Origin: a virus
Virus record (IMG/VR): IMGVR_UViG_3300042562_001768
Reading direction: 5' to 3' (one strand)
Length of the DNA: 15,563 nt
A program made the translations under genes and the position numbers. Below are positions 1,912-15,563 of this stretch, piece by piece. The notes beneath the pieces were generated by a model, which was not told the origin of the DNA, made no database searches, and saw nothing but the letters and a program-made list of their open reading frames with translations. Each line of letters begins with the position of its first letter. Positions within the stretch are counted from its first letter, which is position 1.

Positions 1912-3609
1912 ATCAGACGGTCACGCAAAGCGCCCGCCGGAGCGCTCCAGATTGCGGACGCCTACGCTCACGAAGCGCTGAAGGGCAAGCGCTACAACAC
2001 CCGCATCCGCGCCTTCAGTTCCCAGTGGCTGGCCGCGCGGGCGGCACCAAAGTCGGCTGGTTACGTGTGGGATGAGGAGCGCCTGACCAGCCTGGTGGAG
2101 TACGCGCGGGAGCGGTTCAAGATCACGCTCCTGCCGTGGCAGTACCTGGCCTTCGCCACGCTCGTTTCGTGGCGCGATCAGGCCGACCTTCCGGTGGTTC
2201 GGGTGTTCGCGATACAGGTCGCGCGGGGTGCGGGGAAGACGGAGATGGTGGCGATCCTGGCGTCTTGGCTGGTCGAGTGGACCGCGCGCGCGGGTCGTTC
2301 GCCGATCGAGATCGTGGTGCTCGCGACGCAGATGGAGCGCGCCAAAGACGTGTGGCTTCGGCAGAAGGTCAGCCTCGCGGACGACCCGTCCTGGCGCCTG
2401 GTCGGTGGTCTGTCGTCGCTCGTCATTGCCGCGGCCCACCACGCTGGCGGGGTGGTCAAGTGCAAGCCATCGACCCCTAAGAACGCGGACGGAATCCTGC
2501 CCACGCTCGTCGTCTTGGACGAGGCGGCGCGCATCGAAGACGAGACCTACGCGCGCGCGCTCAGTTCGATCAGCAAGGTGCCAGGCTGCCAGGCGCTGAT
2601 CGTTACGACGCCGGACAAGGATCAGCGCCGCCGCGGATACGGCACGACCATCGGACTGCTGGAGCGCGCCTACGACGAGAACACTTCGCCGCCGCCAGGG
2701 ATCGCCGGGATGATCTTCGGCATCGACACCACCGATCGACCGGACGATCCGGAGGCGTGGTACAAGGCGCACCCCAGCCTCGGCATCACGAAGCAGCTCA
2801 GCGACTACACGCTCGGCAAGGCGCTGCTCTTGGATCCCGGCGCACCGAACGATCGCGACGAGTTCTACACCCAGTTCCTCGCGACCTTCACGGATGACCT
2901 GGCCGGTGCCATGCCGCTAAGTCTGTTCGACGCGTGCGTCGAGGACTGGGATCTCTCCGACTTCCGCGGCTTCCCGGCAGTGGTCGGAGTCGACTTCAGC
3001 CAGGGCGGTTGGAGCGGTCAGCAGACGGACCTGACCTCGATCAATGTGTCGGTGTGGGACGGCGTCCGCATCCGCTCCAGGTCGTACCACTACTGGGCCG
3101 GGACCAACATCGAAGCGGACGAAGTCAAGTGCCGACAGCCGCTGCGCGAGTGGCGGGACGCGGGTCTCTTGGAGGTCTGCGGCAACACCATTGACTACTC
3201 GCTACTGGAGGCGCGGACCATCGCCATCGCGTCGATCGTTGACCTGCGGCACTGGGTCGCGGACCCAGCAGGGAAGGCGCCCGCCTGGTGCGAGGCGATG
3301 GAGAAGCGACACGGATGGCGCTGGTCGCGCGCTCCTCAGTCGCACATTTACATGGGCTCGGCGTGGGCAATTTGGAGCGACGCCGTGCGCGGTCGGCGCA
3401 TCCAGTTCGCACCCGATCCGGTGCTCCGCGCGAACCTGTCGCACACGCGCGCGGTGCCAACCGACCGAGGTCTGAGCGTGCCAAGCAAGGGGCGCAGCAC
3501 CAGCAACATCGACGCCGTCACCGCGTGCTGCATGTGCATCAAGGTGCTCAACGATCGCGAGCTCATGACCGAGAGTCTGTACGGCGACCCGGGCAAGATC
3601 TCCTTCTGA
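1894..3609 (+). CDS. terL: Terminase large subunit
   Basis: Long ORF with a P-loop-like segment VFAIQVARGAGKTEMVAILASWLV and a Walker-B-like LVVLDEAARIEDE, followed by a C-terminal nuclease-sized region. ATG at 1894 has an AAGGA Shine-Dalgarno; the ORF-track start at 1831 is a TTG extension. Followed by portal and capsid genes. Confidence 0.9.
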   Translation: MHKKTPIRRSRKAPAGALQIADAYAHEALKGKRYNTRIRAFSSQWLAARAAPKSAGYVWDEERLTSLVEYARERFKITLLPWQYLAFATLVSWRDQADLPVVRVFAIQVARGAGKTEMVAILASWLVEWTARAGRSPIEIVVLATQMERAKDVWLRQKVSLADDPSWRLVGGLSSLVIAAAHHAGGVVKCKPSTPKNADGILPTLVVLDEAARIEDETYARALSSISKVPGCQALIVTTPDKDQRRRGYGTTIGLLERAYDENTSPPPGIAGMIFGIDTTDRPDDPEAWYKAHPSLGITKQLSDYTLGKALLLDPGAPNDRDEFYTQFLATFTDDLAGAMPLSLFDACVEDWDLSDFRGFPAVVGVDFSQGGWSGQQTDLTSINVSVWDGVRIRSRSYHYWAGTNIEADEVKCRQPLREWRDAGLLEVCGNTIDYSLLEARTIAIASIVDLRHWVADPAGKAPAWCEAMEKRHGWRWSRAPQSHIYMGSAWAIWSDAVRGRRIQFAPDPVLRANLSHTRAVPTDRGLSVPSKGRSTSNIDAVTACCMCIKVLNDRELMTESLYGDPGKISF

Positions 3610-3674
3610 GAATCTCCGCCGCACTGCAACGGGAACCCATTGACATCGCTGCCGCGATTGTTGTTACTACTCGC

Positions 3675-4796
3675 ATGAACCGTCTGTTCAAGCTCTTCGG
3701 CTTCAAGTCTGCACCGATGAATATCGGTTGGGACTCTCCGTCGAACTACGTCCGAGCAGACGTCGCGGCGCTGCCGTCCGTGCAGCGATGCATGAACCTG
3801 ATCGCGAACGATGTCGCGCGCTGCCCACTGGTGGTGCGCGACGCCGAGCAGATGATGGTCGAAGACTCGACGATCACCGCGCTCTTTACGAATGCGGCGC
3901 AGGCCGAGCTAAGCGGAACAGACTTCCGCCGATGGATGGCTTCGGAAGCGCTGCTGTCTGGCAACGCCTTCGCGCAGATCGTGACCGACTCGATGGGCCA
4001 GCCCGTCGCGTTGCGTCCGCTGGCGAGCTCAGCCGTCAGCCTGAACGAAGACAGTAACGGCGTGCTGCATTGGACCTACTCCGGCACCGAGATCGACTAC
4101 GCCTCGATGCTGCACTTCAAGGGTGCGCCGAGTCCAGGGAATCCGTACTGGGGCACAAGTGTCCTGAGCGCTGCGGCGACAAGCCTCGACGCAGTCGCGC
4201 AAACCGAAGCAGCCTGGAACGCATACACCCGGAGCGGCGGATACGGCAAGCTTGTCTTCAGTCATCCCGGCGCTCTCCAGCCTGCGACCCGCGACGCCAT
4301 GCGGACCGCCTTCATGTCGGGACACATGACTGCCGCCGCAGCGGGCACACCGATCTTCGTCGGCGAAGGGATGACCGTGACCGCGCTCTCGCCGTCGTGG
4401 GGCAAGGACATGATCGAGCTCCGCGCCGCGGGCGCGCGCGTGGTCGCGAACATGTTCGGCGTACCAGCCGCGTACCTCGACATGAGCGAGGCGCGCACGC
4501 AACCAGAGATCGCACAGTCGTACGTCTCGTCGTGCTTAGAAATCTGGGCCACGACCTGGGAAGCGGAGATCAGTAACAAGCTCTTGCGACCTGGTCTTCG
4601 TGTTCGTTGGGACTGGTCGCCTGTCTTGGAAGGAGACTTCCGAACCGCTGGCAAGGCGTACGGAAAGTTCGTCGAGGTCGGCGTGCTCAGTCCGAACGAC
4701 GTCCGCGTTCGCCTTGGCTACTCGCCGCTGCCTGGTCTCTGGGATCCGAGGCCAGTGATGAGTGGCATCACCATCGAATCGGACGGTCTGCAATGA
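3675..4796 (+). CDS. Portal protein (HK97-like family)
   Basis: 373-aa ORF directly between terminase and prohead protease; MNRLFKLFGFKSAPMNIGWDSPSNYV... First in-frame ATG after the terminase stop; the ORF-track start at 3288 lies inside terminase. No clear Shine-Dalgarno, so the start is uncertain (alternative ATG at 3717). Confidence 0.8.
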   Translation: MNRLFKLFGFKSAPMNIGWDSPSNYVRADVAALPSVQRCMNLIANDVARCPLVVRDAEQMMVEDSTITALFTNAAQAELSGTDFRRWMASEALLSGNAFAQIVTDSMGQPVALRPLASSAVSLNEDSNGVLHWTYSGTEIDYASMLHFKGAPSPGNPYWGTSVLSAAATSLDAVAQTEAAWNAYTRSGGYGKLVFSHPGALQPATRDAMRTAFMSGHMTAAAAGTPIFVGEGMTVTALSPSWGKDMIELRAAGARVVANMFGVPAAYLDMSEARTQPEIAQSYVSSCLEIWATTWEAEISNKLLRPGLRVRWDWSPVLEGDFRTAGKAYGKFVEVGVLSPNDVRVRLGYSPLPGLWDPRPVMSGITIESDGLQ

Positions 4797-6403
4797 TGCG
4801 AGAACTCCGCGCACAACTGGCACCGACTACCGACGGGACGGTCCGCGGATACGCGGCGCTGTTCGACTCTTGGTCGCTGCCGATCACCGAGCGCGGACGC
4901 ACGTTCCGCGAACGCATCAAGCCGGGCGCACTACAGCCGGACGGGAACGTCTCACTGTGGTGGATGCACGACCACACCGACCCACTCGCGAACACGCGCA
5001 GCGGATCGCTCACGATTACAGAGGACGCGAAGGGGATCGCATTCGTAGCCGACTTGGGTACGAGCGCGCGCGCGGACGAGATCCGCGACCTCATTCGCCG
5101 CGGGGTGGTCGACCAGATGTCGATCGGCTTCGTCGCACTCTCAGATATCTGGGACGGCAATACGTCCCGCACGATCACTAAGGCCACGCTCCATGAGGTG
5201 AGTTTGGTCGAATCGGCTGCGTACCCCGGTACGTCAGCAACCGTCCGCAACCACCAAAGGAAACCCGCTATGTCCGTCAAAGAAGATCGTGCTCGCATCG
5301 CCGAGCTCAACGCTGAATACAACACCGCTACCGATGAGCGTCAGTTCGCCATCATGGACGAAGTCGCAGAGTGTGAGGAGCGCATCGCTGGCGCCCAGGC
5401 TGCATTCACCAACCGCGCCGCCACACCGTTGGCAGTCGCACCGTCGGCACCGCTTGCCGTCGTTCGTCGCATCACGCCTCCAGTCCGTGACGAGCAGCGC
5501 GAGTGGTTCCGCACTGGCTTCAAGCAGAACCGATCCATCGGTCTGAGCGTGACGGGTGGCAACGCTACCGCCGGGCAAACTTTGCCGACCCTGAGCGGTG
5601 AGTTCATCAAGGCGCTCGACCAAGAGTCCGTGATGCGTAGCCTCGCAACCGTCGAGACCCGTGGACTCGATACCGATATCCAAGTGATCGGCACGCGCCA
5701 GACCGCTGTTCTGCTGGCAGAAAAGGCGGCGTACACATCGACCGACTTCACCGCGACCAAGCTCTCTTTCAAGAGCTACAAGTCCGGCGCGCTGACCGAC
5801 GTCACGGAAGAGGCCTTGCAGGACACCGTGTGGGATGTTGCGAGTCAGGTAGTCAGTGAACACGGTCGCGCTCACTCGCGACTCTGGGAGAACTACTACG
5901 TAAACGGTACCGGCACTTCCCAGCCGCAAGGCGCGTTTGCTGCGACCTGGACAACGACGTACACCACGGCGGCTGTTGGCTTGCCAACGGTGGCGGACTT
6001 GGTCACGGCTGCGTACAAGTTGCCAACCCCGTACCAGGCGAACGCGTCCTGGCTCATGCACTCAACTGTTTGGGCTGCGGTCGTCGGCAGTGCGGCCAGC
6101 GGCAAGTACCTCCTGAACGGTGAGAACGGGAACATCCTCAAGGACGGGGCCGTCGCTCTGTTCCTCGGCAAGCCTGTCTACCTCAGCGAGTGGGCACCAT
6201 CGGCAGCAACCGCTGCTACGGTGTCGTGCCTGTACGGTGACTTCAAGGCGGGCTACCGAATCATCGACCGCTCGATGCTGAGCTTCACCGTTGATGATGT
6301 GTCCCAGATGTCTAACGGACTCATCCGCTACACCAGTCGTATGCGCTCCGACGCCAAGGCCGTCGACGCGACCGCGATTGTCCCGGTCGTCATCAAGACC
6401 TGA
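4793..6403 (+). CDS. Prohead (capsid maturation) protease fused in frame to HK97-type major capsid protein; internal ribosome-binding site and ATG at 5270 may also give stand-alone capsid protein
   Basis: ATG at 4793 overlaps the portal stop (ATGA). The N-terminal ~159 aa (VRGYAALFDS...WWMHDHTD...VDQMSIGFVALSD...LHEVSLVESAAYPGT) match the HK97 prohead protease pattern. From MSVKEDRARIAELNAEY onward it is a coiled-coil delta region followed by a capsid-protein-like body ending ...DATAIVPVVIKT. No stop codon separates the two parts. AAGGA at 5257-5261 precedes the in-frame ATG at 5270. Confidence 0.85.
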   Translation: MMRELRAQLAPTTDGTVRGYAALFDSWSLPITERGRTFRERIKPGALQPDGNVSLWWMHDHTDPLANTRSGSLTITEDAKGIAFVADLGTSARADEIRDLIRRGVVDQMSIGFVALSDIWDGNTSRTITKATLHEVSLVESAAYPGTSATVRNHQRKPAMSVKEDRARIAELNAEYNTATDERQFAIMDEVAECEERIAGAQAAFTNRAATPLAVAPSAPLAVVRRITPPVRDEQREWFRTGFKQNRSIGLSVTGGNATAGQTLPTLSGEFIKALDQESVMRSLATVETRGLDTDIQVIGTRQTAVLLAEKAAYTSTDFTATKLSFKSYKSGALTDVTEEALQDTVWDVASQVVSEHGRAHSRLWENYYVNGTGTSQPQGAFAATWTTTYTTAAVGLPTVADLVTAAYKLPTPYQANASWLMHSTVWAAVVGSAASGKYLLNGENGNILKDGAVALFLGKPVYLSEWAPSAATAATVSCLYGDFKAGYRIIDRSMLSFTVDDVSQMSNGLIRYTSRMRSDAKAVDATAIVPVVIKT

Positions 6404-6740: not shown

Positions 6741-7070
6741 ATGGCTGGCGCTGGATACCGACGCGAACGCATGATCTACCAGACGCCGAGCCGCAGCACT
6801 GATGTCGCAGGCCAGCAGACGGTAACGTGGTCGGACGTTGTCACTCTGGCTTGCGCCATCACACCGACACAGCGCGAGGTCCTCGACGATCTTGGTGTGT
6901 CCGTGCGGACGGACATCTCGGTCGAGTCTTCGTACCACGCGAGCGTCGTGGCGAAGGGTCGGCTGAAGCACACGGTCAGCCTGTCGATCTACAACATCAT
7001 GAGCGTGACCGATCCGGACGCGGGGCGCAAGCGGCGCCTCCGGATCCTTGCTGCGGAGATCGTCCCATGA
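6741..7070 (+). CDS. Head closure / head-tail joining protein
   Basis: 109 aa, size and position typical of head-tail joining proteins (MAGAGYRRERMIYQTPSRS...RLRILAAEIVP). Call is mainly by synteny. Confidence 0.5.
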   Translation: MAGAGYRRERMIYQTPSRSTDVAGQQTVTWSDVVTLACAITPTQREVLDDLGVSVRTDISVESSYHASVVAKGRLKHTVSLSIYNIMSVTDPDAGRKRRLRILAAEIVP

Positions 7071-7846
7071 TCGCAGCCAAGGTCGACCTGAAGGTGATCA
7101 ACGGATACATCGAACGGCTCACCCTCGCGGGTCGCGCCAAGGTCTACGCACAGGCCGCGCGCGATGCAGCGAACCCAGTACGAAACGAACTGCGCCGCGC
7201 CTGGCGCAAGGCCAAGCGCCGCCGTGGCAAGATCACCAGGAAGATCGCGGCAGCCCAAGAGGTGCGCGTCTTCGTCGGTCAGCGCGGCGGGCGCAAGGGC
7301 GTGGCCACCGTGATGGTGGGAACGAACTACAAGCGCGGCGGCTCGGTCAAGTTGTGGCATCTGCTTGAGCGCGGATATCAGCACTACGGCGGGGGATCGA
7401 ACTCGGTCTACACCCCACGCGACGCGCGCGCGCGCGACACGGAGAAGCGCGAGGACGAGGTAGCCCGCGTGACTGGGGAAGAACAAATCGCGCACGAGGT
7501 GCGGATGGGAACCGATGGAACCAAGTACTCCCGGCAGCGCGTGGCACAGGTGCGCCATCAAGCGCGCGTGTGGTTCCGACAGAACAACCCAGCCGACACG
7601 GCGCACCGCCGCGCAGCCTGGGCAAGCAAGCAGTCAGCGATGAAGTCCGCGCGCGGCGGGGTCATCGCAAACCGGAAGCGCATCCTCGGTCGGCACATCT
7701 CTGAGCCCATCGCGCGGCTCGCGAAGGAACGCCTGCCAGCCATCGCAGCGCAACACGCGCAGCGCCTCGCGTGGTATCAGATCGACGGACGCAAGGCCGG
7801 GGCGGCGAAGCCGAAGTTCTCGAACGCCGACTGGTGGCAGCAATGA
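7067..7846 (+). CDS. Basic structural protein, possible neck / tail-completion protein
   Basis: ATG at 7067 overlaps the upstream stop (ATGA). 259 aa, very Arg/Lys-rich. Function inferred from position only. Confidence 0.4.
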   Translation: MIAAKVDLKVINGYIERLTLAGRAKVYAQAARDAANPVRNELRRAWRKAKRRRGKITRKIAAAQEVRVFVGQRGGRKGVATVMVGTNYKRGGSVKLWHLLERGYQHYGGGSNSVYTPRDARARDTEKREDEVARVTGEEQIAHEVRMGTDGTKYSRQRVAQVRHQARVWFRQNNPADTAHRRAAWASKQSAMKSARGGVIANRKRILGRHISEPIARLAKERLPAIAAQHAQRLAWYQIDGRKAGAAKPKFSNADWWQQ

Positions 7847-8890: not shown

Positions 8891-9063
8891 TGCCACACCT
8901 AGACGCCGACGCCGCACTCGCAAGCGAGCACACCACGCTGGAGCGGATCGAGTACCTACTCGCCACGCTTGCCTGCGCGATGACTGGCCAGGCGCCACAG
9001 CAGTTGCTGCCGTGGCGTCGGCGTGGCATCGAGGACTTCATGGGGCGCATCAATGGCCAATGA
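8890..9063 (+). CDS. Small ORF (57 aa) in the -1 frame relative to the upstream chaperone candidate; possible second chaperone ORF
   Basis: My translation is MPHLDADAALASEHTTLERIEYLLATLACAMTGQAPQQLLPWRRRGIEDFMGRINGQ, with ATG at 8890 (TGATG overlap) and stop TGA at 9061-9063. Not in the ORF track (below length cutoff). No canonical slippery heptamer seen upstream. Confidence 0.3.
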   Translation: MPHLDADAALASEHTTLERIEYLLATLACAMTGQAPQQLLPWRRRGIEDFMGRINGQ

Positions 9064-9661
9064 GTTCAAGTCAGTCCTCACCCTGACCGCGGACAGTTCC
9101 GGCGTCACCGCCGGAGTTAACCAGGCGATGCAGTCCCTCAACAAGTTGCAAGGCGGGATGTCCGCGCTGACATCGCTCGCGGGCGTCGGCTTTGCCATCG
9201 GCATTGGCAAGCAACTCTTCGGCGCAGCCACCGACGAGATGGCACGGATCAAAGACCTCGCGCACTCCTTCAGTCCGGAAGGGATGCGCGGCGCCAACGC
9301 CATGAACATGGCGACCCAGCAGGCGGACATGGCTATCGGCAAGGCGTTCGGTCCGATCGTGGAAGCGATCGACCAGGCATCCGTCGCAGCGATCAAGGAA
9401 CTGACCACGTTCATCATCGAGCACAAGGACGAGATCGGGATGGCGATGATCTATCTGACCGAGGTCACGCACGTGGCAGCAATGGCTATGGCAGAGTTCC
9501 TCGTCGGTCTGGGCAAGACCGTCGAGTGGCTGCATAACTTCATGGACAATCCACTACAGGCGACCGCCCAACTCGCTGGCGATGTTGCGATGCAGGCCAG
9601 TGGCGCCAACCTCGTCATCGGTATCTATGACCTCCTCAAACAGAAATTGGGTGGCACATGA
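9053..9661 (+). CDS. Tape measure protein candidate, unusually short (~202 aa)
   Basis: Ala/Gly/Met-rich, apparently helical protein with a hydrophobic segment ALTSLAGVGFAIGIGKQLFGAA, at the tape-measure position after the chaperone-like ORFs. ATG at 9053; an alternative GTG lies at 9023. Confidence 0.45.
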   Translation: MANEFKSVLTLTADSSGVTAGVNQAMQSLNKLQGGMSALTSLAGVGFAIGIGKQLFGAATDEMARIKDLAHSFSPEGMRGANAMNMATQQADMAIGKAFGPIVEAIDQASVAAIKELTTFIIEHKDEIGMAMIYLTEVTHVAAMAMAEFLVGLGKTVEWLHNFMDNPLQATAQLAGDVAMQASGANLVIGIYDLLKQKLGGT

Positions 9662-10611
9662 CCGCGAAGCTCATCGAGATCCCATCAAGCGATACCGTCG
9701 AGATGGCGATGCCTGGCGAGGAGATGAGTTGGACGCAGCACTTCCGCTACGTCTCAAACGCCGCCAAGCTCACCGCGTGGGATGTGCTCGGCGACACCGC
9801 CACTGGCGTACCGCAGCAGGGTTCAAGATACCCAGCCACGCCGTCGACCAACTGGAAGTGCAACTTCGTCGCGCGCAGTGTGACAGCGACACCCGTACCA
9901 CAAGCGGCTGCGGGGTGCGCCTTCGACGTCCGAGTGAAGTGGACCGGGCGCGCGGCGCAGGATCCGACGCGTCCGTACTTCAAGATCACGCGCTCGACCT
10001 CGACGCGCAGTCATGGCTTCTACCGCACAGGCGACATGTTCACGATCACGCAGGCAAACGGCAGCGAGCCCTTCCCGCCAGTCCAGGACATGGGCGGGGT
10101 AAAGAGTGACACCAACGGTCAGCCGATTGTGATGCCGATCTACCAGCAGCAGATCCAGGTCGACATGCTCTGGGACCGAAGCCGGGACAACGCCAGCTCG
10201 CTTGGCTTTACGGCATCGCCTGACCCGCCGATGAACTGGTACGACAACTACTGCCTCACACGGAACTCCGTGCCGTTCCTCGGTTGGCCGATCGGATACG
10301 TCACCTACCTCGGATGGAGTCTGAACCCGTCACCGGACGAGGTGTGCGTTTTATCGCATCGCTTCCTGGCGGACGATTTCCAGTTCTGTGAGCAGCGCCC
10401 GCTACCGAATCAAAGCGGCAAACCGTTCTTAGCGGCGGGTCTGACCTGGGGCGGAACGGCTAGCACACCAGCCGTAACCGTGCAATCCCAGGCGTACGTC
10501 TTCTGGTACCAACCGTTCCAGACTCTTGTCGACTACTCCACGCTCTTCACCATCCGTCCGAATCTGTGGACGGCGATCAACACTCCGAAGCCAGCGTGGC
10601 CGTCGCCATGA
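9658..10611 (+). CDS. Minor tail protein (distal tail / baseplate candidate)
   Basis: 317-aa ORF, ATG overlapping the upstream stop (ATGA). Trp/Tyr/Pro-rich. Position after the tape-measure candidate. No specific motif recognised. Confidence 0.5.
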   Translation: MTAKLIEIPSSDTVEMAMPGEEMSWTQHFRYVSNAAKLTAWDVLGDTATGVPQQGSRYPATPSTNWKCNFVARSVTATPVPQAAAGCAFDVRVKWTGRAAQDPTRPYFKITRSTSTRSHGFYRTGDMFTITQANGSEPFPPVQDMGGVKSDTNGQPIVMPIYQQQIQVDMLWDRSRDNASSLGFTASPDPPMNWYDNYCLTRNSVPFLGWPIGYVTYLGWSLNPSPDEVCVLSHRFLADDFQFCEQRPLPNQSGKPFLAAGLTWGGTASTPAVTVQSQAYVFWYQPFQTLVDYSTLFTIRPNLWTAINTPKPAWPSP

Positions 10612-11111
10612 CGTACGAATGGCCGATCTTTACCGAAGGGCTTTACGGCAAGGCGAACGCCTCGGTGTGCAACGCCTGGACGCAATCGGCGCGCATCGTG
10701 CTATCAAGCGCGGAGGCGCTCGACTGGGCGAACCGAACGAAAGACGGTATGGACCAGCCCGATCGGTGGCTTGCGAAGGTCACGGGCGCAGCAGTCATCA
10801 GCAGTAATCGCTGGTCGTACACCTTTGTGCCTGTCATTATCTCCGGCACGACTACCGCGAACCTATCCGGCACTGGCCAGGCTGGCTCCGGCGCCTTGAA
10901 CTTGCGCGAGATGAACAACACCACAATCCTCGCGGATGGTTCGCCGCTCGCGAGTGGCGTGACCATCGGTCCCGTCGGCTCCACCTGGGGCGGATCGAGT
11001 TGGTCTACGAGTTCGCTGACTGGAATCGTCGAGATGAACGTCGAACATAAAGCCGACGGCAGCGTCGCGTATTGGTTTTCCTCACCGAACCCTGGGAGAT
11101 GTGCAACATGA
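10608..11111 (+). CDS. Minor tail protein, Gly/Ser/Thr-rich
   Basis: 167 aa from ATG 10608 (ATGA overlap); the ORF-track start at 10566 lies inside the previous gene. Low-complexity GTTTANLSGTGQAGSG and SSWSTSS segments are typical of fibre-like proteins. Confidence 0.5.
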   Translation: MTYEWPIFTEGLYGKANASVCNAWTQSARIVLSSAEALDWANRTKDGMDQPDRWLAKVTGAAVISSNRWSYTFVPVIISGTTTANLSGTGQAGSGALNLREMNNTTILADGSPLASGVTIGPVGSTWGGSSWSTSSLTGIVEMNVEHKADGSVAYWFSSPNPGRCAT

Positions 11112-12415
11112 AATACGACGTAATCCGGTCATACTGGCCAGCTCCGATCTACGACACGCCTCTTCCTGCTGGCGTTTATGGCAGTATGCGGGCGTTCAAC
11201 TTCATACGGGAAACCACTACCAAAGGGCTAGACGTAGCAATCGTTGGAGACAGCAACACGGGCTACAACGCTCCGAACGATGGCGGTTACGTTCAAGGCA
11301 TTTCCTATGGTTTGGATGTTGCGTTCCCTTCAAATGCTTACGCCACCGCTACGTTTACGCTGATGAACGAAGGGAACTCTGCTGGCTACAAGTGCTCAAT
11401 GCAAGGCGCATCACTGGCCAGCGCACCGGGTGGCTACGTTTCGGGAAAAGCGAGCGGCGACGCGGGTATTAAAACTTTCTTTGACCGTGGTAGTGGAAGT
11501 TGGAGTGATGCGGGCGGCGCGAACGCAGGGACGTACACGGATTTCCCATGGCTTGAATCGGGAAATCAAACCGAGAACATTAACCGTGGTATGACAATCG
11601 ACTCAGATCACCCCATCGGCGTAAACAACGCGCTCCGATATAGAGTCCTGCGGAGTCAGACCACAACGGGCGGCAGTTTCTATATGCGCGTTCGTCTGAA
11701 TGGTGGCTCATATGCACCGATTGCCACATCGGCTTCGATCCCTTGCAGTGGCGCAACTAATCTAGTTGCATCAGAACTACCGATCACTGTTGGCACTCGC
11801 AATCTGTCCTTGGCTTCATTCTGGAGCATCCAAAACGCAGTTGGTCTTTACACGGTCGGCCCGTGGGGCGGTTTGTTGCAATCGATGTACCGCCCAACAG
11901 TTGGTTGGGCAGTGGATGCGATGTATTTCATGGGTGGTGCAACCATCACCGCCATCGATACAGACTTCGCCGCAGCAAACACCGCTGGGTATCTCACCGC
12001 CACCATGCTTGCCGAGTATTACAACCGACAACTAGCGGCGGGTGGGGATGGTCGCATCGTTGTTTGGATTCAAGGCGGAGCCAACCAAAGCGACTGGACA
12101 TCGAGTCCAAGCACATGGCCAGCAAAGTGGGAATCCATTATGAATTACGTCCGCACAGCAGCCACATACGCCGCCATACCTTCGGAGAAGTTGGCATTCG
12201 TTGCGATGTGTACGCATGACATCACGGGTTATGACTTTGCTTCTAGGCGAGCCGCGCTCATCGCATTGACTACTGCAAACCCTGATCTAACGGTAGTCAA
12301 CATTCCGGAGATTATTCCGTTTGCTTCTTACTCTGCCTATGCAAGCGGAGCGCACTTGTCTAAGACCGGATACCAAACGATTGGCAATGCCATTATTCAA
12401 CGGATGCTTTCTTGA
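11108..12415 (+). CDS. SGNH/GDSL-like hydrolase (esterase/deacetylase-like) protein, tail-associated or lysis enzyme
   Basis: 435 aa from ATG 11108 (ATGA overlap). Block-I-like VAIVGDSNTGYNA near the N-terminus and a block-V-like ASGAHLSKTGYQTIGNAI near the C-terminus, with a long Gly/Ser/Thr-rich insert between. The Asp three residues before the His is not conserved (SGAH), so catalytic integrity is uncertain. G+C visibly lower than the head genes. Confidence 0.45.
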   Translation: MKYDVIRSYWPAPIYDTPLPAGVYGSMRAFNFIRETTTKGLDVAIVGDSNTGYNAPNDGGYVQGISYGLDVAFPSNAYATATFTLMNEGNSAGYKCSMQGASLASAPGGYVSGKASGDAGIKTFFDRGSGSWSDAGGANAGTYTDFPWLESGNQTENINRGMTIDSDHPIGVNNALRYRVLRSQTTTGGSFYMRVRLNGGSYAPIATSASIPCSGATNLVASELPITVGTRNLSLASFWSIQNAVGLYTVGPWGGLLQSMYRPTVGWAVDAMYFMGGATITAIDTDFAAANTAGYLTATMLAEYYNRQLAAGGDGRIVVWIQGGANQSDWTSSPSTWPAKWESIMNYVRTAATYAAIPSEKLAFVAMCTHDITGYDFASRRAALIALTTANPDLTVVNIPEIIPFASYSAYASGAHLSKTGYQTIGNAIIQRMLS

Positions 12416-12714
12416 TCCACCTAGCGGTCGTCATCCTCACGTTCCTCCTGTCAGCCTGTGCATCGAGCACGGCGCAGATCGCGCACGCAGCCAACGCGTC
12501 CCGCGTCTCGGTCGGCGCCGCGCGCGGACACCTGGTCGCCGCCAGCGCGGAGCTCGACCAGATAGAGGCTCAATGCCAGGTGGTGAGCGAGCAGATCCCG
12601 TACGTCTCTGATGATGTGCCGAGCTACATGTCGGTTCTTCAGTACGCCAGTGTTGCCGTCGTCGTCTTCGTCGTTGGCAGTCTCATCTACACCTACATAC
12701 CGCGGAAGAAATGA
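12412..12714 (+). CDS. Membrane protein with N-terminal lipoprotein-type signal (lipobox LSAC) and C-terminal transmembrane helix; lysis-associated candidate
   Basis: TTG start overlapping the upstream stop (TTGA). MIHLAVVILTFLLSAC ASST... has a hydrophobic h-region followed by L-S-A-C. The C-terminus ASVAVVVFVVGSLIYTYI PRKK is a hydrophobic helix with a basic tail. No in-frame ATG near the N-terminus, so the start is uncertain. Confidence 0.4.
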   Translation: MIHLAVVILTFLLSACASSTAQIAHAANASRVSVGAARGHLVAASAELDQIEAQCQVVSEQIPYVSDDVPSYMSVLQYASVAVVVFVVGSLIYTYIPRKK

Positions 12715-12839
12715 TGCTGACCCAAACTCAATATCTGATATGGCTCGTTGCGATTCTCGTCACGACAGCGGCTGCGGGGTGCCGAGTTGGCGCCACTTGG
12801 TCGACCTTCAAACATCAAACAAAAAAGGCTCGCAAATGA
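12711..12839 (+). CDS. Small single-pass membrane protein (42 aa), holin-like candidate
   Basis: My translation is MMLTQTQYLIWLVAILVTTAAAGCRVGATWSTFKHQTKKARK: one hydrophobic helix and a basic C-terminus. ATG overlaps the upstream stop and the next start overlaps its stop. Below the ORF-track length cutoff. Confidence 0.3.
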   Translation: MMLTQTQYLIWLVAILVTTAAAGCRVGATWSTFKHQTKKARK

Positions 12840-12949
12840 TTACGCAAGCAGACCTCTCCAGTACCCTCGGCTCAATTTTCTTCGCGACCAGTCTCGGATT
12901 CGTGGGCTTGATACTTGGTTACATCCTGTGCCGCCGGGCAAGCAAATGA
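12836..12949 (+). CDS. Small single-pass membrane protein (37 aa), holin-like candidate
   Basis: MITQADLSSTLGSIFFATSLGFVGLILGYILCRRASK, the C-terminal part of ORF-track ORF 12611..12949, whose N-terminus overlaps the previous genes. ATGA overlaps at both ends. Confidence 0.3.
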   Translation: MITQADLSSTLGSIFFATSLGFVGLILGYILCRRASK

Positions 12950-13707
12950 GTCTGCTTCGGTGTTGCTGCGGTAGCGCAACCTGTGCATCCTGTCCATCGT
13001 TACCAGGCGACTGGTCGACGCGGGACTATCGTTTGTTCATACCAGCAGTCAAGCCTGTTGGATATGGTCGCGCGAGTTCAGTGCCGAGCGGTCTATACAC
13101 CGGGCCCTGCACGCCAGCGGATCCGTACTGGAACTTGGCAGAGTGTGCATTCGACTTTACCACTGGCTCGCTGTACTACGTCTATTCTCGACTCGCAAAC
13201 TGCGAGCCCTTTCCAGAAGCTTGCGGCGAAGTCTTAAAGTTCCCGCGGGAGATCGGTGGCTTCTATACGGACAACCTTGTCCCGTCGATTACGTTCTCTA
13301 CGCAGATTGCCACGCGCACATACAACCAAACAGGCGACGTTTCATATTTCATCCAGGCGGACGTATCGCGATGCTGGGGCGGATGGGCTGGGTGTGAGAG
13401 TTGCACCAACCGAACCAAGGTCAGCCTCTACTACTTTTTTGGCAACAACTTCACATACAACGACAACTGCACAAACCATCCTGCTGGTGTTACAAAGACT
13501 GTGGAGCTGGAGTATCTCTCGAATCCTTACGCCGCAAGTGAAGGCATCGGAAAAACTTGCTACCTCAGAACCTGGAAAGTGAGCCCTGGGCCGACAGCCT
13601 TCTGCTACCCGGAAACAGGTCAATATGGCTGCGCTGATCCTTGCGTCCTTGGATCGTGTTCGTTCTTTGGATCAAGCAACTTTCCCTCAACGGTAACAAT
13701 CGTATGA
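12946..13707 (+). CDS. Cysteine-rich protein (18 Cys in 253 aa), unknown function
   Basis: ATG at 12946 overlaps the upstream stop (ATGA); the ORF-track start at 12748 is an upstream extension. N-terminal MSLLRCCCGSATCASC cluster and Cys spread through an aromatic/Asn/Thr-rich body. G+C at third codon positions visibly lower than the head genes. Confidence 0.6.
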   Translation: MSLLRCCCGSATCASCPSLPGDWSTRDYRLFIPAVKPVGYGRASSVPSGLYTGPCTPADPYWNLAECAFDFTTGSLYYVYSRLANCEPFPEACGEVLKFPREIGGFYTDNLVPSITFSTQIATRTYNQTGDVSYFIQADVSRCWGGWAGCESCTNRTKVSLYYFFGNNFTYNDNCTNHPAGVTKTVELEYLSNPYAASEGIGKTCYLRTWKVSPGPTAFCYPETGQYGCADPCVLGSCSFFGSSNFPSTVTIV

Positions 13708-13910
13708 AGATCCCAGGACAGATTGAGGCGTCGGAACATCAACCGCCCGCGCGCATAGGTCTCGGCGACGCCGTGGCAGCAGCCACAAAGGCTGTCGGGG
13801 TCAAGCCTTGCGGCGGATGTGCCAAGCGCCAGGCGGCGATGAACCGGGCGACGCCAGCCTGGGCGCGGCGGGCGCTTGGTTGGTGGTCGCGGCATTTCGG
13901 TGTACCGTGA
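13704..13910 (+). CDS. Small protein (68 aa) with a GDAVAAATKAVGVKPCGGCAKRQAAMNR motif
   Basis: ATG at 13704 overlaps the upstream stop (ATGA). The CxxC-containing segment looks like a conserved small-protein motif, but I cannot name the family. Confidence 0.45.
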   Translation: MKIPGQIEASEHQPPARIGLGDAVAAATKAVGVKPCGGCAKRQAAMNRATPAWARRALGWWSRHFGVP

Positions 13911-15027: not shown

Positions 15028-15563
15028 TGCGCGTCGCCAAGCAACACATCCACATGGGAGAGATCTTCCGCTGCTCCGGACTTGCTCCGATGCAGCGTTA
15101 CCTACTCATGGCAATAGCCGATTACGGGCTCCCCGCCTGGCCGTCCCAGGCGCGCCTCGCAAACAAAACTGGACTCTCGCGATCCAGCATCAACACGATG
15201 GTGTCAGAGTTACGTCGCCTCGGCGTCCTTACGACGGAAGGTCGGGGCAAGTCTTTGACCTATCGAATTGACCTGTCTGGGAAGGGTGAGGTGTCGTCCG
15301 CAGCGACACCTCACCTGTCGTCCACAGCGACACCACCTGTCGTCCACAGCGACAGCAGGTGTCGCCCACAGCGACAGGGATCAGAACTCTCCAAGGAACT
15401 CTCCAATGAACCCTCCCAGTCCGCGGTGGAAACCGCGGGGGGGTGGGAGGTCTTTGGGGAGGTCATGCAAGCCATCGAACGGCACGATCCGCGAGCCCAG
15501 GGAGACCTGCCCGGACAGCGCCGCGTCGTGCGTCGGCGCCTGGATGAACTCGGCATCAAGGAC
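15027..15563 (+). CDS. Winged-helix DNA-binding protein, putative replication initiator with embedded iterons; truncated by the window edge and completed by 2..280 (229 aa in total)
   Basis: ATG at 15027 (TGATG overlap with erf stop). N-terminus MQRYLLMAIADYGLPAWPSQARLANKTGLSRSSINTMVSELRRLGVLTTEG is HTH-like. The frame is open to the window end and continues through the duplicated 127 nt. The Ser/Thr/Pro-rich linker is encoded by the iteron array. Confidence 0.65.
   Translation, partial: MRVAKQHIHMGEIFRCSGLAPMQRYLLMAIADYGLPAWPSQARLANKTGLSRSSINTMVSELRRLGVLTTEGRGKSLTYRIDLSGKGEVSSAATPHLSSTATPPVVHSDSRCRPQRQGSELSKELSNEPSQSAVETAGGWEVFGEVMQAIERHDPRAQGDLPGQRRVVRRRLDELGIKD
15285..15376. promoter_or_regulatory. 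Array of four 17-bp palindromic iteron-like repeats (tgtcgYccRcagcgaca), candidate origin of replication or operator
   Basis: Units at 15292-15308, 15316-15332, 15338-15354 and 15360-15376, spaced 24/22/22 bp. Each is an inverted repeat tgtcg-N7-cgaca. The first is extended to 12-bp arms (ggtgaggtgtcg / cgacacctcacc, 15285-15315). Followed by an AT-richer 11-bp direct repeat gaactctccaa x2 at 15384-15406. Confidence 0.55.

Follow-up and report, generated by a model that had tools for sequence, protein, structure and literature searches.

The gene and its place in a small phage genome

The window analysed here is the whole 15,563-nucleotide (nt) stretch of viral DNA held as IMG/VR virus record IMGVR_UViG_3300042562_001768, and the gene under study is an open reading frame (ORF) of 435 codons on its + strand, which runs from an ATG at 11108 to a TGA at 12413-12415. 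With high confidence, the product of this gene (hereafter the target) is an SGNH-fold esterase that carries an inserted beta-sandwich of the type found in the peptidoglycan O-acetylesterase Ape1; its activity is predicted. The window ends in an exact 127-bp terminal repeat (positions 1-127 are identical to 15437-15563), and two JGI contigs, L004 (96% identity) and L005 (~100%), are independent circular permutations of it. The repeat and the permuted contigs together indicate that the window represents a complete genome of ~15,436 bp. This phage genome, which comes from metagenomes only, was recovered from three samples and, at ~15.4 kb, is among the smallest complete tailed-phage genomes.

The genome opens with genes for an HNH endonuclease, the large terminase, the portal, a protease-capsid fusion, a connector, a head completion protein and a gp10-like protein. 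These are followed by genes for a 134-residue protein, a 131-residue tube-like protein, two small proteins, a 202-residue putative tape-measure protein, proteins of 317 and 167 residues, and the 435-residue target. Beyond it lie genes for proteins of 100, 42 and 37 residues and for a Cys-rich 253-residue protein, the last of the late block, after which the early genes begin, including ERF. The features discussed below are collected in Table 1.

A Shine-Dalgarno-like GGGAGA was found 9-14 nt 5' of the target ATG. The start codon overlaps the stop codon of the upstream 167-residue gene by 4 bp (ATGA), and the stop codon overlaps the TTG start of the downstream 100-residue gene by a further 4 bp (TTGA). 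On the opposite strand of the same interval only ORFs of 52-71 residues are present. Promoter-like and terminator-like sites around the gene matched no better than chance. On the basis of these chance-level matches and the overlaps on both sides, we rejected the idea of an autonomous moron that carries a promoter and a terminator of its own. The N-terminus of the target, MKYDVIRSYWPAPIYDTPLPA, lacks a hydrophobic signal peptide.

Table 1. Positions of the esterase gene, its predicted parts and the flanking features in the window
Feature	Position	Strand	Remarks
435-residue SGNH esterase gene with inserted beta-sandwich	11108..12415	+	stop codon included
N-terminal residues 1-21, lineage-specific	11108..11170	+	low to moderate model confidence
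SGNH core segment 1, residues 22-75	11171..11332	+	model: strands (E) and helices (H) E23-25, H28-39, E41-47, H61-72
Block I G47-D48-S49-N50, predicted nucleophile Ser49	11246..11257	+	D48, S49 51/51; N50 50/51; G47 49/51
Inserted beta-sandwich, residues 76-265	11333..11902	+	placed like Ape1 CBM35
SGNH core segment 2, residues 266-435	11903..12412	+	model: alternating strands and helices
Block II G276-G277-A-T279, predicted oxyanion-hole Gly	11933..11944	+	G277 48/51; T/S279 49/51
Block III G323-G324-A-N326-Q-S-D329, predicted oxyanion-hole Asn	12074..12094	+	G324, N326 51/51
Block V S413-G-A-H416-L-S, predicted general base His416	12344..12361	+	H416 51/51; L417 49/51
Tract common to sister phages L009 and L012, exchanged module	11189..12400 (12479 in L012)	+	84% DNA identity, only blastn match
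Upstream tail genes: 202-residue putative tape-measure 9053-9661, 317-residue 9658-10611, 167-residue 10608-11111	9053..11111	+	ends overlap
Membrane-protein cluster: 100-residue 12412-12714, 42-residue 12711-12839, 37-residue 12836-12949	12412..12949	+	sequence features
Cys-rich 253-residue orphan, N-terminus MSLLRCCCGSATCASC	12946..13707	+	GC3 0.587, no annotation

Extent of the protein family

Searches with the target sequence alone returned nothing: Pfam gave zero matches at E <= 10, including to the GDSL models PF00657 and PF13472, and there was no match in PHROGs at E <= 1 or in the PDB with phmmer. Likewise, neither tblastn of the target nor megablast of the whole window produced a match among 50,697 cultured-phage records. 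Because it is undetected by Pfam, PHROGs and tblastn against cultured phages, the target stays 'hypothetical' in current annotation. A word-indexed search of 5.8 billion proteins yielded only nine homologues, all unnamed, at 43-100% identity. When a profile built from these nine sequences was run exhaustively against 1.84 billion cluster representatives, 434 matches were obtained at E <= 1e-3 and 70 at E <= 1e-30, each of the 434 being the representative of a cluster at 50% identity. Among the best 150 of the 434, most span most of the profile.

At least 108 distant relatives were found in IMG/VR, and a scan of metagenomes added four loci. In species-representative bacterial genomes no close relative was found; the three distant relatives detected there are all on contigs of metagenome-assembled genomes of 1.9-14.7 kb. 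Nearly all members of the family come from uncultured phages.

Catalytic motifs

Inspection of the target sequence confirmed two motifs that the first-pass annotation of this DNA had pointed out, namely a GDS block near the N-terminus and a block-V-like His segment near the C-terminus, which are present as GDSN (residues 47-50) and SGAHLS (413-418). In addition to these, GGAT at 276-279 and GGANQSD at 323-329 were recognised. Conservation was assessed in a family alignment of 51 sequences reaching ~22% identity, to which all counts below and in Table 1 refer. Residues D48, S49, G60, G266, G324, N326, H416 and G421 are invariant, and G47, N50, G277, R179, R307, Q308, L417 and Y422 are nearly so. 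That the motifs are conserved across sequences this divergent indicates that they are not chance occurrences. The conserved Ser of block I, Gly of block II, Asn of block III and His of block V make up the SGNH signature; of these, G277 is predicted to be the oxyanion Gly from its position, block II coming directly after the core strand 267-275 in the model described below.

The acid of a classical catalytic triad is absent. Three residues before the block V His (H-3) the target has Ser413, and neither H-3 nor H-2 is Asp. At H-3 the family most often has Gly (19 sequences), followed by Ser and Asp (8 each), and Asp occurs at H-2 in 4 of the 51. Retention of the block V His together with the missing Asp suggests a Ser-His dyad, and the enzyme probably works in this way, with a Gly/Asn oxyanion hole. 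SGNH esterases that operate with a Ser-His dyad exist, as in family CE2 of the CAZy literature.

Similarity to known families could be traced only faintly at the level of profiles. Lipase_GDSL_2 was matched weakly by 8 of the 51 relatives (E <= 0.01, best 4e-6), in the C-terminal half only, and in relative P0009 a sub-threshold match to this model (24.4 bits, cut-off 32.9) covers the region equivalent to core segment 2. The 51-sequence profile reached Ape1 in the PDB at E values of 0.17-0.18 and over block V only; in this alignment, which is not significant (E 0.17), the family His is paired with the HLT motif of Campylobacter Ape1 (CjApe1), which contains the catalytic H369. A stretch of 40 residues from the N-terminal region of the family, including GDSNT, also matched residues 99-137 of the baseplate protein gp16 (8kea_J, 155 residues) weakly at E 0.05, and was left uninterpreted because it is too short.

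Predicted structure and the inserted domain

An AlphaFold model built from 9 sequences had a predicted local distance difference test (pLDDT) score of 54, and with 51 sequences this rose to 91.8, with a predicted template modelling (pTM) score of 0.93. The model has a Rossmann-like alpha/beta/alpha core made up of residues 22-75 and 266-435. The first of these segments consists of a strand, a helix, strand beta1 and the helix that follows block I; the second comprises strands at 267-275, 317-323, 362-368 and 394-397 and helices at 280-310, 337-354, 377-389 and 419-434. After the helix that follows block I, an all-beta domain of 190 residues is inserted. The pLDDT of this insert is ~90 or more in most blocks of 10 residues, with two blocks dipping to 67 and 78. 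By contrast, residues 1-10 and 11-20 have mean values of 49 and 71, respectively.

The insert had been described in the first-pass annotation as a long Gly/Ser/Thr-rich stretch separating the two motifs. Enrichment was indeed observed, Gly, Ser and Thr making up 34% of residues 76-265 against 16-25% in most other proteins of the genome, but the insert is predicted to be a well-folded beta-sandwich and not a low-complexity spacer.

Comparison of the model with known structures placed Ape1 at the top, represented by the N. meningitidis peptidoglycan O-acetylesterase 4k3u (22.4; 303 of 350) and by 8gld (22.3; 310 of 365). The tail-fibre esterase gp63.1 of phage G7C (4qnl) followed at 14.2 (186), and more than 50 further SGNH hydrolases matched at 10-14 (145-188). 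The same ranking was obtained with the low-confidence model from 9 sequences. Among the top structural matches only Ape1, a carbohydrate esterase, covers both domains, and it is the second, inserted domain that puts Ape1 ahead of the other SGNH matches. The superposition on Ape1 also implies that the side chains of Ser49 and His416 would be neighbours in space. The SGNH fold proposed in the first-pass annotation is thus borne out by structure prediction. In the BFVD database, two proteins labelled 'uncultured Caudovirales' matched over the full length at template modelling scores of 0.73-0.77, and matches from cultured phages are annotated as minor tail protein, tail fibre, hydrolase or lipase.

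In the paper describing the CjApe1 structure, the SGNH domain comprises residues 41-87 and 228-392, and helix alpha2 is followed by an inserted CBM35 domain (residues 94-222). Some loops of this domain brace the oxyanion loop and line the active-site groove. The catalytic residues of CjApe1 are S73, G237, N270, H369 and D367, the last lying in D367-V368-H369.

Exchange of the gene body between diverged phages

A codon composition visibly richer in AT had been taken in the first-pass annotation to suggest a recently exchanged module, and both parts of this suggestion hold. The target gene has a GC content of 0.530 and a GC content at third codon positions (GC3) of 0.541 (0.54 against 0.76 elsewhere); the 20 other genes have a mean GC3 of 0.764 with a standard deviation of 0.050, so that the target lies ~4.4 standard deviations lower. 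In sliding windows the low-GC tract extends over ~11000-13750 and is not uniform: GC3 is low in the 253-residue gene (0.587) and the 37-residue gene (0.632) and normal in the 100-residue gene (0.792). Low GC3 is also a property of the family. At 60 of 70 family loci (L019-L098) the SGNH gene lies below its neighbours, with a mean difference of -0.089, and the shift is seen in GC-rich and AT-rich phages alike (for example 0.14 against 0.26 in L064). Because it is family-wide, low GC3 alone is no proof of recent transfer.

Direct evidence came from two sister phages, L009 and L012, whose gene order is the same as that of the window. From residue 19 onward the SGNH proteins are 87.5-88.4% identical to the target. 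Over the other proteins identity to these phages is 23-58%, and about 35% across the rest of the genome: 30% for TerL, 37% for the portal, 30-32% for the 317-residue protein, 37-39% for the 167-residue protein, 46-58% for the 100-residue protein, 53-58% for the 37-residue protein and 23% for the 253-residue protein. The first ~18 residues are not common to the window and the L009 and L012 homologues. The gene body has therefore been exchanged recently between diverged lineages, and the first ~18 codons are lineage-specific; the 88% protein identity against 23-58% elsewhere, in the sole tract that matches at the DNA level, is what upholds the earlier idea of recent exchange. The whole 11000-13750 tract was also considered as one transferred island and rejected, given the GC3 of 0.79 of the 100-residue gene and the 46-58% identity of its product as opposed to 88%. 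A lineage-specific N-terminus combined with an exchanged body is a pattern typical of virion-anchored receptor-binding proteins.

Gene context in relatives

As judged from gene order, the gene sits in the tail/host-recognition block. In L001, a siphovirus, the homologue (P0006, 556 residues) carries a tail-tube-like domain at its N-terminus, and the next gene encodes a Gly-rich fibre. The order of tape-measure, 317-residue, 167-residue and SGNH genes is syntenic with L001, and the 317- and 167-residue proteins are homologous to the products of the two L001 genes that lie between the tape-measure gene and the SGNH homologue (E 1e-7 and 3e-9, respectively). In two T7-like podoviruses the homologue either immediately precedes the genes for tube, nozzle, gp13 and gp14 (L003) or is located between a fibre gene and the terminase genes (L008). 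L006 is probably a podovirus of the SU10 type, as portal and adaptor families of SU10 were matched in a pooled scan; its gene order is a 244-residue gene, a 187-residue gene, the SGNH gene, membrane-protein genes and a 537-residue fibre-like gene.

Neighbouring genes were also surveyed around the distant relatives, taking up to two upstream and three downstream at each, which gave 150 non-redundant genes. Among the 25 most frequent PHROG families of these neighbours, all those with a description are head, tail, fibre, adaptor, scaffold or terminase families, and none is a lysis family.

In other members of the family the module is fused to further domains. Virion-related partners are Phage_connect_1 (a gp6-like connector), HCP head completion, Phage_TTP_11, a T4 gp15-type neck protein with a TIG domain, Baseplate_wedge and the Gly_rich_2 fibre domain; the fusion to the gp15-type neck protein with TIG indicates that the module is displayed at the neck in a myovirus. 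Repeat and adhesion partners are RCC1 repeats, Big, fn3 and dockerin, and glycan-binding partners are CBM_5_12, PG_binding_1 and PG_binding_3. The module also occurs inside giant multidomain proteins, namely P0078 (4412 residues, module at 3434-3861), P0100 (2005 residues) and P0072 (954 residues).

Ten of the distant relatives (L028, L040, L051, L052, L054, L062, L072, L081, L093 and L095) are on IMG/VR contigs of 15.9-17.5 kb. On these ~16-kb contigs the gene products run to ~300 residues, ~170 residues, the SGNH protein, ~100 residues, ~290 residues and ~90 residues. Contig sizes, gene sizes and gene order, from which alone this is drawn, suggest a large, diverse clade of tiny phages with the esterase at a fixed position.

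Membrane proteins downstream of the esterase gene

The first-pass annotation had the target gene directly precede a membrane-protein cluster. The position is as described, and the cluster encodes three proteins, of 100, 42 and 37 residues, and not two. The 100-residue protein has an N-terminal lipobox (LSAC) and a C-terminal transmembrane segment, the architecture by which u-spanins are defined (N-terminal lipoprotein signal and C-terminal transmembrane segment; PMC6139136). It differs from them in having a Cys in its periplasmic part, a feature absent from all 58 known u-spanins (PMC6139136). What looks like a gap between the 100- and 37-residue genes is taken up by the gene for the 42-residue protein (MMLTQTQYLIWLVAILVTTAAAGC...), which has a lipobox as well as a transmembrane segment. 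Its ORF is kept in L009 and L012, falls below the usual length cut-offs and is absent from the gene calls of L004 and L005. The 37-residue protein has a single transmembrane segment.

A lipobox/transmembrane gene directly follows the SGNH gene in L009 and L012, where the products are detectable homologues, and in L006, L014 and L015, which have other backbones. At 10 of 44 non-redundant distant loci a lipobox/transmembrane partner with a sequence motif in common with the 100-residue protein of the window was found, and a conserved transmembrane protein of ~38 residues is often encoded next. This lipobox/transmembrane family, with the motif 'VSDD.P...STL.Y', occurs in a ~100-residue form with a C-terminal transmembrane segment and a ~160-residue form with an extra cytoplasmic tail; members are encoded at 12412-12714 (+) in the window, at 9807-10292 in L006 and at 3895-4389 in L014, as well as in L036, L043, L047, L049, L061 and L093.

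Neither Pfam nor PHROGs recognised an endolysin, holin or spanin family in the complete genome, the three membrane proteins matching no known lysis family; the PHROG scan took in all window proteins, and its result refers to the best 25 of 63 matching families. The target itself has no match to a muralytic family in Pfam or PHROGs, and its fold is that of an SGNH esterase, not of an endolysin catalytic domain. Pfam scans of the ORFs of L006, L009 and L015 also gave no muralytic family.

Proposed role and its alternatives

The role that we favour, and consider rather probable, is that of a virion-associated enzyme at the tail end which removes O-acyl groups from a glycan of the host envelope and is encoded by an exchangeable host-range cassette. 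Of the two possible roles named in the first-pass annotation, tail deacetylase and lysis enzyme, the evidence favours the former. This assignment is supported by the conservation of the motifs, the tail synteny, the fusion to virion proteins in relatives, the horizontal exchange and the literature. We infer a carbohydrate O-acyl esterase activity, most likely on O-acetyl groups; the substrate and the physical attachment to the virion are likewise inferences. The esterase would be made late, from the last gene of the tail block, and would sit at the tail tip or next to it. From there it would strip acyl groups from O-antigen, capsule or exopolysaccharide, or possibly peptidoglycan, which would let the phage bind or pass that envelope layer. 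The sandwich is predicted to be inserted at the position of the Ape1 CBM35, whose loops line the active-site groove. The gene body would serve as the exchangeable host-range cassette, behind a lineage-specific stretch of ~18 residues, and residues 1-21 may be a docking peptide.

Several observations weigh against a tail-borne surface deacetylase. The target has no recognisable virion-attachment or trimerisation domain, only ~21 poorly modelled residues before the core, and anchor-type domains (tail tube, gp15, connector, baseplate wedge) are found in relatives only. The classical triad acid is missing. Its best structural match, Ape1, acts on peptidoglycan and not on surface polysaccharide, and three relatives carry peptidoglycan-binding domains (PG_binding_1, PG_binding_3). 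A 4-bp overlap joins the gene to a u-spanin-like gene, behind which come two more small membrane genes; this is the usual slot of an endolysin, and no muralytic family (lysozyme, amidase, peptidase or transglycosylase) was recognised in the Pfam and PHROG scans of the predicted window proteins.

In one alternative, which we regard as unlikely, the target would be a lysis enzyme, a cytoplasmic, holin-released peptidoglycan O-acetylesterase in the endolysin slot. Once the 6-O-acetyl groups had been taken off N-acetylmuramic acid, lytic transglycosylases of the host, or a phage lysin that escaped recognition, could break down the wall, and the u-spanin-like and small transmembrane proteins would then complete the disruption of the envelope. 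De-O-acetylation is a prerequisite for lytic transglycosylases, which agrees with such a role, as does the absence of a signal peptide, a trait of canonical endolysins. The overlap with the u-spanin-like gene, the Ape1 match, the PG_binding domains and the lack of a detected muralytic domain in the complete genome and in the ORFs of L006, L009 and L015 point the same way, and the order of SGNH, lipoprotein/transmembrane and ~38-residue transmembrane genes recurs on unrelated backbones (L006, L014 and L015) and at 10 of the 44 distant loci. An esterase alone, however, is unable to cut the sacculus, and a second lytic activity would still be needed, because it cuts neither glycan strands nor peptide cross-links. 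Unlike endolysins, relatives of the target are fused to neck gp15, tail-tube, connector and baseplate-wedge domains. The L001 homologue has tail genes on one side and a fibre gene on the other, that of L003 adjoins a T7-type tail tube gene, and no lysis PHROG is among the top families of the 150 neighbours. Nor was the lipoprotein/transmembrane gene transferred together with the esterase gene (46-58% as opposed to 88% identity to the sister phages), and such a partner is absent from 34 of the 44 distant loci. A version in which the esterase, translationally coupled to the u-spanin-like gene and set free by a small holin, attacks the wall as the lysis factor of a phage with no classical endolysin, while the same module acts at entry where it is fused to virion proteins in other phages, seems to us slightly less likely again. 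If a lysis factor it were, the phage would have a lysis strategy that dispenses with a classical endolysin and uses host lytic transglycosylases or autolysins.

It is about as improbable that the target is a soluble receptor-destroying enzyme, not part of the virion, which would be freed at lysis and deacetylate the receptor glycan on debris and neighbouring cells. Such an enzyme would keep progeny from being trapped, or modify the surface, in the manner of viral receptor-destroying esterases or of NanS-p. The lack of an attachment domain, the neighbouring membrane-protein/lysis-like cluster and the variable placement of stand-alone homologues in T7-like genomes (between fibre and terminase genes in L008, before the tube gene in L003) are consistent with it, and NanS-p of Shiga toxin (Stx) phages, encoded beside the lysis genes, offers an analogue. 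Sialate O-acetylesterase genes of the NanS-p type are reported to flank the Shiga toxin operon in Stx2a phages. Set against this are the many relatives in which the module is fused to structural proteins, the combination of an exchanged body and a lineage-specific N-terminus, as is usual in receptor-binding proteins anchored to the virion, and the place in the tail block that the gene appears to keep throughout the group of ~16-kb contigs.

Two further roles appear very improbable. As a lipid or lipopolysaccharide deacylase, the target would be an SGNH lipase acting at entry or lysis on outer-membrane lipids or lipid A acyl chains, comparable to the LysB esterases of mycobacteriophages or to acyloxyacyl hydrolase. 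Some of the BFVD matches are annotated as lipase and the gene adjoins envelope-disruption genes, but the top matches, and the sole ones covering two domains, are carbohydrate esterases (Ape1), the beta-sandwich is inserted where Ape1 has a carbohydrate-binding module, and the fusion partners are glycan-binding or structural (CBM_5_12, PG_binding, Big, TIG), none being lipid-binding. Equally remote is a catalytically dead protein that keeps the SGNH fold only as a scaffold for receptor recognition. The missing triad Asp (Ser413 at H-3), the lack of a conserved acid at H-3 or H-2 and the failure of the target to reach the Pfam GDSL thresholds would fit a dead enzyme. Yet across 51 sequences reaching down to 22% identity the Ser, the His and both oxyanion residues hardly vary, if at all, which would be unexpected without catalytic constraint, and dyad SGNH esterases are known.

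Relation to known esterases

Ape1 of Neisseria and Campylobacter (4k3u, 8gld) shares with the target the insertion topology and the relative position of the beta-sandwich. The target insert is longer, at 190 residues versus about 129 in CjApe1. Sequence similarity between Ape1 and the target family is not significant (E 0.17), and the single sequence gives no match. Ape1 has the triad Asp, which the target lacks, and the target is also without a signal peptide. The genes differ in setting, that of Ape1 belonging to the bacterial patA/patB/ape1 cluster and that of the target to a phage late operon, among tail and membrane-protein genes.

Gp63.1 of phage G7C and the receptor-binding proteins of Klebsiella prophages are proven esterases. 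With G7C gp63.1 (4qnl) the target has in common an SGNH domain and a gene in the tail block. However, gp63.1 and the SGNH receptor-binding proteins of Klebsiella, Acinetobacter and Pectobacterium phages are fibres or spikes of ~600-1100 residues with an N-terminal anchor and trimerisation domains, and their SGNH domain is not split in the Ape1 fashion, whereas the target is a compact stand-alone enzyme of 435 residues. The haemagglutinin-esterases of influenza C virus and coronaviruses are likewise viral SGNH O-acetylesterases with an inserted lectin domain, and they destroy receptors. They are envelope glycoproteins of eukaryotic viruses, and the analogy to the target is functional only, no homology being claimed.

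Ape1-like architecture is already known in phages from Curtobacterium prophage proteins. These 'cluster 8' (4K7J-like) proteins are predicted deacetylases reported to resemble N. meningitidis Ape1, with a central beta-barrel that was read as the carbohydrate-binding part (PMC9862828). They come from prophages of a Gram-positive actinobacterium and are likened to the target by their described architecture. NanS-p of Stx prophages differs more, being an accessory enzyme with a nutritional role and another domain layout, encoded outside the tail block.

Among the determinants of phage host range, SGNH esterases acting as deacetylases on glycans of the host surface are an established and increasingly recognised class. 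What is added here is a large sequence family that escapes current profile libraries and a clear-cut case of cassette exchange in which the N-terminal peptide is specific to the lineage. The alignment of 51 sequences could seed a profile that would annotate several hundred metagenomic phage proteins. With its ~15.4-kb genome and no recognisable endolysin, the phage also offers a compact system for questions of entry and exit.

Other genes of the window

The HNH endonuclease gene (1501-1776, +) lies ~120 nt before the large terminase gene, and no small terminase subunit was identified in the window. At 4796-6403 (+) a 535-residue fusion combines a prohead protease (Peptidase_S78, residues 12-154) with an HK97-type major capsid protein (264-532). 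The gene at 7067-7846 (+) encodes a 259-residue protein with a weak HK97-gp10-like match at residues 25-103 and a long Arg/Lys-rich C-terminal extension. The match of the 131-residue tube-like protein to Phage_tube_2 is weak. The putative tape-measure protein (9053-9661, +) has just 202 residues, which implies a very short tail.

The Cys-rich 253-residue protein that closes the late block has only 6 homologues among the 5.8 billion proteins searched, none with a Pfam match. Its slot is occupied by Cys-rich proteins of 276 and 439 residues in the sister phages and by the 537-residue fibre-like protein in L006, the first residues of which resemble the N-terminus of a tail fibre. Mtd_N was matched in a pooled Pfam scan of the ORFs of L006, L009, L012, L010 and L015, a result that applies to the pool and not to a particular ORF. 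The 253-residue protein may be a receptor-binding protein, as we would judge from the occupants of its slot.

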